A DNA stretch of 31,331 bases from an uncultured Thermoplasmatales archaeon (GCA_964353435.1 CAYGVY010000001.1:1-31331); one strand, 5' to 3'; shown: positions 12,509-22,801, counted from the stretch's first letter. Program-made: numbers and translations. The notes: generated from the sequence alone by a model not told the origin.

Positions 12509-15500
12509 TTATGGAGGACGATAATAATTGTAATTTTGTATTATTTTTGCTGGTGAAAGTATTGCAGCATAAAGAGAAAATTCATCATAGTAACCGTTGT
12601 ATAATCCAAAGTATAATTGATTTGTTGTCACTTTTATTGGTTTTGAACCAAGAGCAAGCGAGCCGTTAAGGTTGGCATTGATATAGAGGTTCATGGTAGT
12701 TTTATCATAGGTAGTCACAATATAGTTCCAGTTGTTTTTCAAGCGCGCTGAGAGGGTATATGGTATATTATTTGAATCCGTAAAAGTTACGAAAACCTTT
12801 GTCTTATTCGCCTTGACGACGTAGGATCCAGATTTTGAGAGTATTGTGCGGTTGGTTTCACTTAAAGGAATTCGTATCACACATTGGTACAAATCATTGT
12901 TTTTCCCACCATAGATTGCGATATAACTATCGTTGATGAATGGAATTATTTTTATGTCATAGCTGTTTATTCTCGGATTCGTGGAAATTTGAGTTGCACC
13001 ATCAACGGTATCTATGATATCACCATTTTCACCAATCCGTAAGGTTGTGATCCAGCCATAGTATTGATACCAGTTCCAAGGGTCGATGAGGTCTTTTGAG
13101 ATAATGGCATAGACTCGGTCGTAGACTTTGAATATCTCTGGTTGATGAGACATATAATTGTCAGTGTAATATCGTCTAATGAATTCTAGGTAATCAATCC
13201 ATGTTTTACTGATAATGCCATTGTCCGCTATTTTTAGGGTAGTAACATAAGCAATATATCGCCAAGCACCACCGTCATAGACAGTAAACACACAGGTAAA
13301 AATGTTGTTATCAACCTTTGTAATTGTTGGATGATAGCATGAAGTAGTAAATGTCCATGAATCGATTACACTTTTTTTAATTGTACCATTGCTTCCATAG
13401 ATTTTCAGAGTAACTAATCGTCCATAATTACTAGGGTTAAGAGAGTCACGATAAATAATAGTATAAATGTCTCCACTAACAGAAATCATCGATGGTTCTC
13501 GACAGCGAAATAAATTATCAAAAATATAAAAGTCTTGGACACCAAAAATATGTCCGTTGTTGCCTATTTTTATTGTTTTTACTTTTCCTTGTGATGTGCT
13601 ATACATTTGATAGGCTATTGCGTAGATACCGTTGCTCTTGTTTATCGGAATAAATGAGAAAGGCGTATTCATGCAATCAGCATCAAACGTATATCGCTCG
13701 ATGAGTGTGATTCGCCCGGTTGCGTTGATTTTCACTGTTACAATTTTACCATGATTATAGCTTGGTAATATCATATAATGACAATATGCAATTGCATAGA
13801 CCTCATTATTAATCGGGATAATTGTTGGTGCATACGATGCATTATATGTTCCGTTAGTGGAGGTATAACCTTGTTCGATGATGAACGAGTCAGTAAAAGC
13901 TTGTGCTACGGTTTTGCTGGTAGTGTTTACTTGTACTGTTTTTAACATCAATTTCGCATCAATCCCTCTGTAAACATCCGCGACATAGTGACTGTCTGAT
14001 GTAAGAATTTCATCTTCTGCATAGCATTTAAGACCCCCGATTTCTTCCATATCAAGAATAGGATTATTGTGGATGTGTCCATCGTCATGTATCCAAATTG
14101 TTTTAATGATACCGTCACCAGCATCGCTTCGGTACACAATCCCATACACTTCATCATCAATTGGAATGAAATACGATGCTGCACAGAGGAAGGGTTCGAA
14201 AGTCACATCTTTCTTAGATAAAGAAACAATGTTTCCGTTATCTTGAATATGGACTGTTACTATTTTTCCCCAGAGGTTTGCGGTAGGAGAATCGACGCTG
14301 TAGGAAATACCATAATAGTCATTAGCTCCATGTAAAGGAAGAATATGAGGATAGCGAATACTATTACCTGCACTCATTTCAAATGCCATTTGATCAAATG
14401 CTTTTGCAAGAGGCGGAATAGTCCGGCTGAGTGTAATATCACCGTTAGACAATATTTCAATCGTTTTTAAAAATCCTGACTGCCTCAAAATCGGACCTGC
14501 GTAGACAATCGCATACATATCATCATGGACATTGATGATTTCTGGATTCCCACCATCGTCGTCATCAAACCAAACATGGAAAGAAATATCAGATAATATA
14601 CCCGTATTTGTAATTTTCACGGTTCGTAATCCGCCATCATCTCCTACACAATTATAAACGATGACGTAGATATCAAAACTGTCAACGACCTTAATAATTT
14701 CTGGTTCTATCATGATATCCCCAAAAATTAATTTTTGATTCACAGGGGAAATCGTTCCAACATTGGAAATATTTAGAGAAATTAATACCCCGGTGTTCGC
14801 TACGTTTATGCCGTATACTATCGCATATACGTTGTTGCTTGTATAGATAATATCAGGAGCAGATGAAAGACCCGCATCGAGAACACGAGTGTTAATTGCA
14901 GTTTTATTGATACGCCCGTCATTAAAAATTTGCACCGTTTTAATATATAGTTGGTTTCCCACACTTGGTTTAGTGTACACAATAGCTACTATTCCATTAC
15001 CTGCATTTACTTGAATAATTTTTGGGGTTTTACACGAGGCATCAAAATTATAAAAATCAAGATAATACGAAGATGTAGATAGATTCTCAATAATATCTCC
15101 AGCATCTGTTATATTAATTGTACTCAGGAAACCTAACGAATTTTCATTCGTCGAAACAAGAGCATAGATATTACCATTGACAGGGATAATACAAGGATCA
15201 TAACATCCTAATGTATAGTTTCCGAATTGTGATAAAGATGACTGAAGAGGTGTACCAACCAGTCCATCACTGTGTCCAGAACGGTTTATCCATGCCTCAA
15301 TGGTACATTCATTGGTGACGCTCAAGGTATTTGAATTAGCAACTTGACCGTAATCATCAATCCCATCAAAACTTAAAGATTTCGTCGAATGGTTTAATTC
15401 TCCGTTTAATCTTTGAGGTCCACGTATTTCATTTGGGGTAAGAATACCATCATTAGGCGGAAACTGCCCGGAGGAGTCAAAGAGCTTTATTCCTGAAGAT

Positions 15501-20287: not shown

Positions 20288-22801
20288 CTAAGGTGGAATA
20301 TAGACACCTCTAAAAATTTTTATTTCATCAATTGATCCTTGTAATCCGCCGCCAAAAATAAGATGATCTGTATTCGTTTTAATTGTACCTGAACAAAGTT
20401 CACTCCCCCCCGTTTGTATAACATCATTTACATACAATTTTAAAAATCCACCCCCATATGTCAAGTCAATTTTTGTCCAATTATCAAAGGAAAGAGTCCC
20501 TGAAACAGTATAGGTTGTATTTCCAATGGCCATCCAAGCAGTGAGTAAATTAAAATTTACCATTATCGCATATGCGTCCCCCTTCTGGATGATAGATCTT
20601 TCATCACCAATCAAATCAATTTTTTCCATTGTGAGAAAACCTCTTTCGCTCGAATTGATAGATCCGTATACGATAATTAATCGATCAATATGGGTTAAAA
20701 GATTCAGAGCAGCAGAACCACCAAGAGCTGAACGACCTTTGAATTCATAGATAAATAATGCAGAATCTGAAATATTACCTGTATCATTTATTGAAATCGT
20801 AGTTAAAAATCCACGTTGCCAATTACTATTATTACCACCGGTAAAAGAAATAGCATAGAGTTCATCATCAATATGCATTATGTCAGTTTCAAAATTATAA
20901 TCGATTGGTGAAAGATAGGTGTAGAATGGAAGTATGTCGAGGGATCCATTAACGATATGACCTAAGGGGCTAATGCTTAATGTTTTTATAAATCCGGTTC
21001 GGAGTTGATCATTCGAATCAGCACCATATGAAATTGCAAAAATATCGTTTGTGACATGAATCATCGATGGTTCTAACCCAGCCTCAGGCAATCCAAATTG
21101 ATAGATATCTTCTAATGGCTCAATGATAGATCCATTATTTAAGATATGGACTGTGATAATGTATCCATTACCCGCTGTAACCCCAAACCCATTGTAGGTG
21201 ATTGCGTACATATCACCCGTGATATATACTAGTGAAGGCTCTGAACAACTTGTTGTTAGTGGAAATTTTATTTTATCAATGATGGCTGGTCCAATATCTC
21301 CTTGATCGTCTATCGCTATGGTAACCAAATACCCCGTCCCGTTTGGAAAAGTTTCAGAGGATGTTCCACCAATAGCTATTGCATAAATATCGGTCCCAAT
21401 GTTGATGATATTGGGTTCTCGTCCATAGTATTCCAGGGCATCAAATGTATCGATAATATCACCGATTGTCCCATTCCCATAGAGCGAGAGTGTAACAATA
21501 TGGCTTTTTGCTTCGGCTTGATCATCTGCTGCTCCATACGCTATTGCATAGATGTTATTATGAATTTTAATTATATTAGGTTCAAAAAAATGAGGAACTG
21601 CTATTGATTTTGTATCAATAGTACCAAGGAAAACACCGTCATCAGTCATTCGAAATGTTGTCACATATGCAGAAGAATTGTCACGATAGGTTATCGCGTA
21701 CATAGTACCACTTATCTGAATTAAATCAGGTTCAAAACAGGAATTTCCTAAGATATCAGAAATATTTTTTGTAGATAATTCTGACACATTACCAGGGAAC
21801 TGCGCTCCAATTTTTGATACATTCAGCCATGTTTGAATGGTTATTTCATTGGTTAAATTAAATTTAGGGTGATGAGGAACATCAACATAATCGGATTCAC
21901 CTGTAAAATTTAAAGATCCGTTATTTTTCCCACCAGCTATAAATGTCGCACCATAGACCGTCCCATTACATGTTGGATTAATTTCATCATGCGCAATGGT
22001 CGATCCAATGGATTCATCGAAATGCCAAAAACCTCTTGTAATTTGGTATGTATAGAAAGATATTGGACCAGATATATTGGTTCCATTACCAAAATTCATC
22101 CGAGCCCAACATTCATATTGAGTACCACTTAGCAATCCACTTAGTTGCAGACCATACCAACCATCAAGAGAAAGTGGTTTTACCGATGGTGAGCTGAGAT
22201 ATGGTCCTCCAAAAATACCATGGGTAAAATTGAGGAGACCTGATGTAAAAAAGCTCGTATCATAAAAATCATAATACATTTTTAATGTCGCAGAAGTTTC
22301 TGAAACATCCTCTGGTGGCAAAACTGTTATGTATGGAGAAGATACACTCGTTCCTTTTTGGATAATTTTGTCGAAAATGATGAAATTCTTATCTACATCG
22401 ACAATGACACATGACACTTGTTTTCCTAGCAGATTCCCTGCAGGATACACAACACGCTCACCTATAGTCCAAAATCCATCGCCATTTTCATCAATCCAAT
22501 AATTAAATTCACTAACGCTAAACGTGTCTTCAACAGTTGCGATTGTTATAGTTATTTTTGTTTTTGTCTTAAGGGGAGTTCCACCTTGATGTTCAATAAT
22601 TACACTATTATTTTGAATAAATCCAACTAATGAAATCTGTGGAGGTGACACATCTGAAAAATTAGACCAAGGATTGAGAACAATAAGAGAGACTGCAGAA
22701 AAGACGCTAACTGCTATTACAATAAGGGTCAGAGTACCTAGTATCTCGGCAACTGCTTCATCTCGAATATGAGGTACCCGTGAGATCGTCTCTCTATTCA
22801 T
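20288..22801 (-). CDS. Giant pilin-adhesin, 837 aa (same architecture, 7 repeats)
   Basis: DEA|VAEILGTLTLI; IEHQGG..WTIGE; FWHFDES..LNFTGESDY..TIQTW; 6 clear + 1 degenerate repeats; IIQKGDAY..LTY..LYVN..GSIDEIKIF. ATG abuts the tadC TAA. Confidence 0.82.
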   Translation of the reverse strand: MNRETISRVPHIRDEAVAEILGTLTLIVIAVSVFSAVSLIVLNPWSNFSDVSPPQISLVGFIQNNSVIIEHQGGTPLKTKTKITITIATVEDTFSVSEFNYWIDENGDGFWTIGERVVYPAGNLLGKQVSCVIVDVDKNFIIFDKIIQKGTSVSSPYITVLPPEDVSETSATLKMYYDFYDTSFFTSGLLNFTHGIFGGPYLSSPSVKPLSLDGWYGLQLSGLLSGTQYECWARMNFGNGTNISGPISFYTYQITRGFWHFDESIGSTIAHDEINPTCNGTVYGATFIAGGKNNGSLNFTGESDYVDVPHHPKFNLTNEITIQTWLNVSKIGAQFPGNVSELSTKNISDILGNSCFEPDLIQISGTMYAITYRDNSSAYVTTFRMTDDGVFLGTIDTKSIAVPHFFEPNIIKIHNNIYAIAYGAADDQAEAKSHIVTLSLYGNGTIGDIIDTFDALEYYGREPNIINIGTDIYAIAIGGTSSETFPNGTGYLVTIAIDDQGDIGPAIIDKIKFPLTTSCSEPSLVYITGDMYAITYNGFGVTAGNGYIITVHILNNGSIIEPLEDIYQFGLPEAGLEPSMIHVTNDIFAISYGADSNDQLRTGFIKTLSISPLGHIVNGSLDILPFYTYLSPIDYNFETDIMHIDDELYAISFTGGNNSNWQRGFLTTISINDTGNISDSALFIYEFKGRSALGGSAALNLLTHIDRLIIVYGSINSSERGFLTMEKIDLIGDERSIIQKGDAYAIMVNFNLLTAWMAIGNTTYTVSGTLSFDNWTKIDLTYGGGFLKLYVNDVIQTGGSELCSGTIKTNTDHLIFGGGLQGSIDEIKIFRGVYIPP

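Follow-up and report, generated by a model that had tools for sequence, protein, structure and literature searches.

The stretch of DNA described here, 31,331 nucleotides long (GCA_964353435.1, CAYGVY010000001.1:1-31331; hereafter the window), belongs to the genome of an uncultured Thermoplasmata archaeon, an assembly of 1.7 Mb in 394 contigs that is 64% complete. On its minus strand lies a type IV pilus-like operon, where two genes for T2SSE ATPases are followed by two T2SSF/TadC-type genes, then by three large genes, P0003, P0002 and P0001, and finally by an open reading frame (ORF) of 291 aa. The three large proteins are the subject of this report. Each combines a pilin-type N-terminus and an immunoglobulin (Ig)-like part with a C-terminal laminin G-like (LamG) domain that is interrupted by tandem repeats, which are predicted to fold into seven-bladed beta-propellers, one in P0003 and two in P0001; P0002 carries fourteen blades.

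In an initial annotation, made from the sequence of the window, 14, 14 and 7 repeats were counted in P0001, P0002 and P0003, respectively. A hidden Markov model (HMM) seeded on the motif given there and iterated on the three proteins recovered 13, 14 and 6 units, with unit E-values of 1e-6 to 1e-18; when the threshold was relaxed and every ORF of the genome scanned, the counts became 14, 14 and 7, with the repeat in no other ORF of the 1.7-Mb assembly. The arrays (12863-15199, 16712-19075 and 20603-21733, with a unit length of ~55 residues) agree within a few bases with those first reported. The units gained at the laxer threshold are degenerate blades, numbers 8 and 14 of P0001 and number 7 of P0003, the last unit being degenerate in two of the three proteins. 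Each unit follows the pattern P-x-I-I-x-V ... D-x-Y-A-I-x-Y ... G-x-L-x-T-V-x-I ... G-x-I, after which comes a variable linker with a fourth strand. The blades find no match in Pfam or NCBIfam when the whole window proteins are searched, none in Pfam in ten diverse members of the family, no sequence match in the PDB with either whole-protein or propeller profiles, and none among the PHROGs.

AlphaFold2 (AF2) models were made of P0003, from an alignment of 43 sequences, and of residues 271-1277 of P0001, from an alignment of 32 sequences. The first has a mean predicted local distance difference test score (pLDDT) of 83.8, about 90 or above across much of the propeller and of the LamG N-half; the second has a pLDDT of 86.9 and a predicted template modelling score (pTM) of 0.77 which, over 1007 residues, points to a fixed arrangement of domains in the model. 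The modelled inserts are all-beta, with four strands per repeat (DSSP, both models). When Foldseek matches in the PDB were structurally re-aligned to the models, the best superpositions on solved seven-bladed propellers (Z 29-33) covered more than 88% of the target. Residues 340-732 of P0003 superpose on PpgL (6igb; Z 29.1, root-mean-square deviation (rmsd) 2.9 Å, 320 of 363 residues), residues 334/340-732 on the PLL lectins (Z 27-28) and on YncE (3vgz; Z 26.7), and residues 334-735 match a stand-alone propeller of the ESM Atlas with a template modelling (TM) score of 0.91. In P0001, residues 381-770 (111-500 of the model) superpose on PLL4 (8q82; Z 32.8, rmsd 2.7 Å, 323 of 336 residues). Since blades 1-7 thus match a complete seven-bladed propeller, they close a ring of their own in the model, and two other folds that were considered, a single 14-bladed ring and a solenoid or beta-helix, were rejected on the same superposition. 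Tandem-propeller proteins such as Utp21 (4nsx) span the whole 14-blade insert (model residues 93-891; Z 24.6, 600 of 634 residues), and the insert of P0001 is accordingly modelled as two seven-bladed propellers.

Several single propellers align over residues 92/93 to 890 of the P0001 model, with 326-347 residues, a range that would place the strand preceding propeller 1 (model 96-102, P0001 366-372) in the last blade of propeller 2, which it would complete. Judging again from alignment ranges, strand 339-346 of P0003 probably completes the truncated blade 7 (velcro closure). Closure of this kind would explain both the degenerate look of the last repeat and the meeting of the two insert ends at the LamG hairpin.

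The domain that receives the propellers is recognized in two pieces. In whole-protein searches, the Pfam profile Laminin_G_3 matches the C-terminus alone, starting at profile position 33-34, with 50.5 bits in P0001 and 31 bits in P0003 against a cut-off of 27.6, P0002 alone falling under it. Scanned by themselves, the segments upstream of the repeats match positions 1-31 (P0001), 1-39 (P0002) and 2-36 (P0003) of the same profile, with E-values of 0.009-0.035 each, and the C-terminal segments match positions 32-150 (E 2.7e-11), 42-150 (0.036) and 34-143 (5.5e-5), respectively. Each N-half match is weak singly; the three paralogues agree, and the halves are complementary in their coverage of the profile. 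HMMs of the two halves, built from 43 homologues, give adjacent matches in ordinary multi-LamG proteins and flank the array in the repeat-bearing ones. Both halves were modelled by AF2 with a pLDDT of ~85-93. Residues 250-345 and 733-837 of P0003 were also given as two separate chains to a complex predictor, together with three controls: the halves dock with a median interface score (ipSAE) of 0.89, the best control reaching 0.00, through 226-247 contacts, and three runs agree at 94-99%. In the calibration of this assay, 51 of the 78 solved complexes came up to this mark, as did 2 of the 108 mismatched pairs. The predictions therefore support, without proving it, the formation of a single beta-sandwich by the two LamG halves. 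The initial annotation had proposed that the repeats separate a LamG N-half from a C-half, that the halves pair, and that what is grafted between them is one or two closed seven-bladed propellers; the complementary halves in all three proteins, the predicted interface of ~240 contacts and the superpositions bear it out on each of these points.

Close homologues of the three proteins are found in metagenome-assembled genomes (MAGs) of Thermoplasmata and Thermoplasmatota. A word-indexed search collected 88 close relatives, whose blade counts are exclusively 6-7 or 13-14, and an exhaustive profile search of 1.84 billion representatives returned 2251 proteins at E <= 1e-30. Among the best 146 new representatives, arrays consist of 7 blades (92 arrays), 6 (16 arrays, with a degenerate seventh), 14 (18), 21 (2), 25, 27 or 49, a few being small or broken. 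Insert length, an assumption-free measure of array size, was taken from 89 split-LamG representatives. It falls into clusters of 325-449 (60 proteins), 725-874 (21), 1075-1174 (3) and 1476 residues (1), which correspond to ~7, 14, 21 and 28 blades; the remaining four inserts, of 216, 290, 629 and 641 residues, amount to 4, 5, 12 and 12 blades. The insertion point is constant in the split-LamG homologues. Matches to the N-half HMM run to positions 74-82 of 82; for the majority of the listed proteins, the C-half HMM sets in at position 2-3, within ~10 residues of the last blade. The site is the same in P0093, a 3278-aa protein from an Omnitrophota bacterium, annotated as DUF2341-containing, which has 27 blades and probably 28. 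Blade numbers are thus quantised in sevens, with rare exceptions, at a single site of insertion, and these two expectations of the initial annotation hold among the homologues.

The clearest exceptions to the rule of seven are P0098 (1076 aa) and P0111 (1085 aa), otherwise typical proteins with a pilin N-terminus, an Ig-like part and a split LamG domain, which have exactly 12 contiguous blades in their inserts of 629 and 641 residues and may form two six-bladed rings. At the other extreme, P0092 (2690 aa, from a Logan contig) has 49 contiguous blades (7 x 7) with a mean identity of 56%. In its first 20 blades the spacing recurs as 52-52-52-47, which suggests that the DNA was amplified in units of four blades, the total still being a multiple of seven; an assembly error is possible in so repetitive a gene. 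Besides the split LamG domain, the propeller occurs stand-alone (~380 aa), in arrays without LamG, beside an intact LamG domain, and in giant proteins that are not pilins. Its spread in the phylum is patchy: it was found in 11 of the 201 genomes searched, and in 8 of 16 in the source organism's own family.

The initial annotation had also invoked a doubling of the propeller during evolution, and this is partly traceable. Scores between whole propellers put propeller 1 of P0001 nearer to its counterpart in P0002 (340) than to the second propeller of either protein (206 and 224), which means that the two-propeller state predates the P0001/P0002 paralogues and is old in the clade. Similarly, propellers 1 and 2 keep their identity between the long-period family of P0101 and the 52-residue-period family of P0094 (632 and 616, versus 503 and 498). 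In P0103 and P0094, the two propellers within one protein are each other's best match, which points to independent doublings or to homogenisation. P0003, with its one propeller, stands no nearer to one half of the 14-blade arrays than to the other. Duplication of a whole propeller was also sought as similarity between blade i and blade i+7, and no offset signal was seen in six 14-blade proteins; the comparison is unrooted and would fit a change from 7 to 14 blades or the reverse. Propellers that have been amplified recently are known (Pereira & Lupas 2022, PMC9218822; Afanasieva et al. 2019, PMC6805158), and the present family resembles them in having members with 7, 14, 21 and 49 blades and ongoing single-blade amplification. 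By sequence comparison it includes recently amplified propellers of its own, P0180 having a mean blade identity of 81%. In contrast, the blades of the window proteins have diverged, to 32-35% identity within a protein, and the blade family lacks a Pfam or PDB sequence match.

The features of the three proteins and of the neighbouring genes are collected in Table 1. DNA near-identical to the window is present in freshwater and other sediment metagenomes from 16 studies. The genes for the ATPase and for the platform protein are both doubled in this operon (22802-28826, minus strand), rather than single, according to the Pfam assignments. The 291-aa ORF directly downstream of P0001 is, from its sequence, a candidate for a fourth pilin or for the main filament subunit. 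Further downstream of the pilus genes (7750-10284, minus strand) lies a gene for an 844-aa secreted Peptidase_C25 protein, of the gingipain family, with a propeptide domain (Pfam E 2e-48). The order of the trio, 7-14-14 blades, is kept in related Thermoplasmata MAGs, together with the pilus machinery. In two of these MAGs (L006:8541-12301 and L002:9791-12455) the first 14-blade gene is split into two ORFs, of 12+2 and 11+3 blades; a frameshift, decay to a pseudogene and misassembly are all conceivable. Metatranscriptome contigs from two libraries of one study match fragments of all three genes with 90-99% identity. They hint at expression in a close relative of the source organism, carry-over of DNA being possible.

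Table 1. Features of P0003, P0002 and P0001 and of the neighbouring genes, with positions in the window
Feature	Position	Strand	Evidence
P0003 gene, 837 aa: pilin N-terminus, Ig-like part, LamG split by one seven-bladed propeller (predicted)	20288..22801	-	ORF; Pilin_N 23.2 bits, Laminin_G_3 31 bits; AF2
P0003 residues 15-87, archaeal type IV pilin N-terminal domain (class III signal-like helix)	22541..22759	-	PF07790 E 1.3e-4; helix 15-34 in model
P0003 residues 155-250, all-beta Ig/FN3-like spacer (modelled)	22052..22339	-	modelled strands 157-250, pLDDT 77-89
P0003 residues 254-335, LamG N-half (WHFDE...TIQTW)	21797..22042	-	Laminin_G_3 positions 2-36; pLDDT ~90; docks on C-half
P0003 residues 339-732, closed seven-bladed beta-propeller (predicted)	20606..21787	-	superpositions Z 26-29; ESM Atlas TM 0.91; repeat HMM
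P0003 residues 735-837, LamG C-half	20291..20599	-	Laminin_G_3 positions 34-143; docks on N-half
P0002 gene, 1285 aa: pilin N-terminus, Ig-like part, LamG split by 14 blades	16373..20230	-	ORF; Pilin_N 30.0 bits; PilinN-Ig-LamGN-B14-LamGC
P0002 residues 278-358, LamG N-half	19157..19399	-	Laminin_G_3 positions 1-39; LamGN HMM E 1e-17
P0002 residues 386-1173, 14 blades, period 53-65 residues	16712..19075	-	repeat HMM, 14 units
P0002 residues 1181-1285, LamG C-half	16376..16690	-	Laminin_G_3 positions 42-150, E 0.036; LamGC HMM E 1.4e-10
P0001 gene, 1277 aa: pilin N-terminus, Ig-like part, LamG split by two propellers (predicted)	12509..16342	-	ORF; Pilin_N 27.4 bits, Laminin_G_3 50.5 bits; AF2 of 271-1277
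P0001 residues 274-356, LamG N-half	15275..15523	-	Laminin_G_3 positions 1-31; LamGN HMM
P0001 residues 366-372, strand probably closing the last blade of propeller 2	15227..15247	-	alignment ranges; modelled strand 96-102
P0001 residues 381-770, propeller 1, blades 1-7 (predicted)	14033..15202	-	superposes on PLL4 8q82, Z 32.8
P0001 residues 771-1160, propeller 2, blades 8-14, of which 8 and 14 degenerate (predicted)	12863..14032	-	Utp21 4nsx superposition; repeat HMM
P0001 residues 1167-1277, LamG C-half	12512..12844	-	Laminin_G_3 positions 32-150, E 2.7e-11
T2SSE-type ATPase, 824 aa	26352-28826	-	Pfam PF00437
T2SSE-type ATPase, 583 aa	24604-26355	-	Pfam PF00437
T2SSF/TadC-type platform protein	23710-24588	-	Pfam PF00482
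T2SSF/TadC-type platform protein	22802-23806	-	Pfam PF00482
291-aa ORF, pilin-like N-terminus (KKKDEAVAGIVVAVMIVGLVL)	11615-12490	-	sequence; weak DUF7289 match, E 0.002, under cut-off

We consider it most likely, with a probability of roughly two in three (0.65), that the three large proteins, paralogues of one another, are modular type IV pilins with binding heads, that is, minor pilins that act as sticky pilus heads, or adhesins. The adhesin role itself is not a result: we infer it from the domains and the operon context. LamG domains and compact propellers commonly serve as binding modules. The pilin domain, Pilin_N (PF07790, cut-off 25.2 bits), is above the cut-off in two of the three proteins, P0001 (27.4) and P0002 (30.0), and the motif K/R-x-A-V-S/A-E-I/V-hydrophobic is visible in the N-termini of all three. 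N-glycosylation sequons (N-x-S/T) are enriched, 24, 26 and 23 being observed against 15.6, 17.0 and 8.7 expected from shuffles (the last pair for P0003, 8.7 ± 2.7), which fits an extracellular location and glycosylated surface proteins of archaea. To these are added the operon and a precedent in Streptococcus sanguinis, described below. Uncharacterised AlphaFold DB clusters of similar overall shape carry the automatic names 'Type II secretion system protein', 'Prepilin-type N-terminal cleavage/methylation domain-containing protein', 'DUF2341' and 'LamG-like jellyroll'. Searched against the PDB, the pilin domain gives no useful match, the profile match to 8fj5, a 'Pilin_N domain-containing protein', having an E-value of just 0.031. 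An NCBIfam match to TafC (E 0.01-0.04) was dropped as a LamG-like resemblance to a Tat-dependent haloarchaeal fimbrial protein.

In the proposed mechanism, each protein would start with a class III signal and a hydrophobic helix of the pilin type, followed by the pilin's small beta-domain, an Ig-like spacer and the binding head. The head would be a single LamG (concanavalin-like, ConA-like) jelly roll, in which the hairpin after '...TIEAW' is opened to admit one propeller in P0003 or two in P0001 and P0002. By completing the last blade, the N-terminal strand would join both ends of the insert, and the ends so joined would let the propeller fit the hairpin and keep LamG and propellers as one rigid body. 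The proteins would be processed by a prepilin peptidase encoded elsewhere in the genome (a Peptidase_A24 is found on contig C6, with 36.6 bits, above the Pfam cut-off), and the adjacent ATPase and platform machinery would assemble the pilus. Such bulky heads would suit the pilus tip, as in the PilA-B-C complex of S. sanguinis. From there, LamG and the propeller loops of variable length (B-C and D-A) would serve to bind glycans or further surface ligands.

The nearest parallel is indeed PilC of S. sanguinis, a pilin with an Ig-like part and a ConA-like lectin module, which binds glycans as part of a tip complex of three minor pilins (PMC9934059; see also PMC8179133). The likeness is one of domain order, from a class III signal pilin through an Ig-like spacer to a ConA/LamG-type lectin module, and of gene organization, several bulky pilins being encoded side by side within a pilus operon. 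The window proteins differ from PilC in being archaeal, with Pilin_N (PF07790) rather than N_methyl, and in having their lectin module split by one or two whole propellers, so that the head is two to three times larger. Sequence homology to PilC was not seen, no comparison aimed at it having been made. Glycan binding and location at the tip have been shown for PilC, whereas for the window proteins we infer both. Another parallel is the tip adhesin PilY1/PilC of bacterial type IVa pili, in which a seven-bladed propeller, with the LamG-like DUF2341 in relatives, is presented by a type IV pilus (PMC4858521, PMC11525922); the bacterial member of the present blade family from Omnitrophota also bears the DUF2341 annotation. 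However, PilY1 docks on minor pilins without being a pilin itself, while the head of the window proteins is fused to the pilin itself; the propeller of PilY1 is C-terminal, while theirs is nested inside LamG; and the window proteins have no match to the Pfam family Neisseria_PilC (PilY1) at E-values up to 0.1. We therefore do not count them as members of the PilY1/PilC family, the likeness being functional only.

Sugar-binding proteins with a class III signal are known from the bindosome of Sulfolobus. By analogy, the three proteins could be cell-surface binding proteins that use the pilin-type signal for export and anchoring alone and stay outside the filament. In favour of this, the heads are of great size (~500-900 residues on top of the pilin and Ig parts), the three genes follow one another in an operon with no visible small major pilin, and archaeal type IV pilus-like loci do contain ancillary secreted proteins of unclear role (Makarova et al. 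2016, PMC4858521). This possibility deserves to be kept in mind; it is nevertheless an unlikely one, since the genes come directly after a complete set of ATPase and platform genes, the trio is conserved together with that machinery, the N-terminus comprises a Pilin_N domain with its beta-part and not a mere signal, and bulky modular pilins do enter pili, at the tip, in the bacterial precedent.

The superpositions bear on a further question, namely whether the propellers bind or catalyze. The best or tied-best structural matches are the PLL/PHL lectins of Photorhabdus (5c9l, 8q82, 5mxe; Z 27-33, rmsd 2.7-3.4 Å, ~320 of 340 residues), compact sugar- or fucose-binding propellers with ~50 residues per blade; these are, however, soluble stand-alone lectins with 5-10% identity to the window proteins, whose propeller profile has no PDB sequence match. 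Lactonase-type propellers (PF10282: PpgL 6igb, 6-phosphogluconolactonases, YncE 3vgz) rank equally (Z 26-30), and this is a similarity of fold only, neither the window proteins nor stand-alone members of the family giving a match to PF10282 at E-values up to 0.1-1. The propellers might thus be extracellular enzymes, resembling lactonases, lyases or glycosidases, with LamG as a carbohydrate-binding module, and the whole a degradative enzyme tethered to the surface. Indeed, the top structural matches include, in addition to the gluconolactonase PpgL (Z 29.1) and 6-phosphogluconolactonases, rhamnose-glucuronate lyase and CylK; 11-15% of the members of the nearest ESM Atlas clusters carry PF10282 Lactonase; and GH43 and GH32 enzymes and sialidases likewise pair a propeller with a ConA-like sandwich. 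In enzymes of this kind, exemplified by the trypanosomal (trans-)sialidases 1mz5/1ms5 and the GH43 xylosidases 6ms3 (Foldseek, whole model), propeller and sandwich follow each other in tandem in one chain, whereas the window propeller is inserted in a hairpin of the sandwich. We regard an enzymatic role as improbable because no Pfam, NCBIfam or PDB sequence match to enzyme families is obtained even at E-values of 0.1-10, the positions that stay constant from blade to blade (P-x-I-I, Y-A-I-x-Y, G-x-L-x-T, G-x-I) are structural, no catalytic motif being evident, lectin propellers match equally well, and arrays elsewhere in the family, in which 14 to 49 blades are nearly identical, have the look of binding scaffolds. 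That the three proteins serve instead as principal components of a thick surface structure resembling a sheath or an S-layer, an idea invited by the three paralogues and by the lack of an obvious major pilin in the window other than the 291-aa ORF, is very unlikely indeed, given that heads of ~80-120 kDa on every subunit would be hard to pack on a type IV filament core and that the cassette recurs in non-pilin giants and stand-alone propellers, as befits a portable binding module.

Several observations weigh against the interpretation of the three proteins as pilus adhesins. The Pilin_N score of P0003, 23.2 bits, lies slightly under the cut-off, and no small major pilin is visible in the operon. 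Both structures are predictions, the velcro closure being drawn from alignment ranges alone. The lectins found as fold matches share 5-10% identity with the window proteins and tie with lactonases, so that the fold alone does not decide the function. A hypervariable binding face was looked for in 38 orthologues; conservation is flat over strands and loops (0.72-0.81), and no face stands out. Finally, the contigs from RNA libraries are gene fragments only, come from a close relative and may derive from DNA.

A stand-alone propeller was also met in another setting. On a 10.7-kb metagenome contig (L030:3178-4329, plus strand), a 383-aa seven-blade protein, P0238, is encoded amid small ORFans, beside an MCM helicase and an RFC-like AAA protein. 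The matching ESM Atlas cluster, with a TM of 0.91 to the propeller of P0003, is labelled 82% Uroviricota. This suggests that archaeal viruses or mobile elements make use of the propeller as well, which searches of PHROGs and viral contigs did not confirm: viral contigs scanned with P0177 yielded nothing, and a fold search of BFVD returned generic propeller and LamG matches only.

Taken singly, the parts of these proteins (archaeal pilin N-terminus, Ig-like spacer, LamG, seven-bladed propeller) are known, and so is the concept of a modular pilin. Full-text searches of the literature, together with Pfam, the PDB and the PHROGs, gave no description of two things: an arrangement in which one to four propellers are nested in a LamG hairpin that is always the same, and the blade family itself. 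A wider and quite speculative view, to which we give little weight, is that LamG with its n propellers is a portable receptor-binding head, built from an as yet unnamed blade family, that grows in steps of seven blades and is common to archaeal pilins, to the pilus adhesins of both Patescibacteria and Omnitrophota and, in the form of a lone propeller, to archaeal viruses or mobile elements, hosts and viruses drawing on one pool of adhesion modules; the three paralogues would then form a heterotrimeric tip with three specificities.

Archaeal pili are known mainly from their small major pilins, and the recognition of surfaces or partner cells by these pili is largely unexplained. The three genes described here provide a concrete and testable candidate, pilins bearing their own large binding head. 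Their nested layout is a clean natural case of domain insertion, in which a propeller with both ends in one blade would be looped out from the hairpin of a lectin, and the blade numbers are held at multiples of seven even where the DNA seems to have been amplified in units of other sizes. The blade family is found in archaea and in bacteria with reduced genomes, and a name and one structure would let many surface proteins now called 'hypothetical' be annotated.

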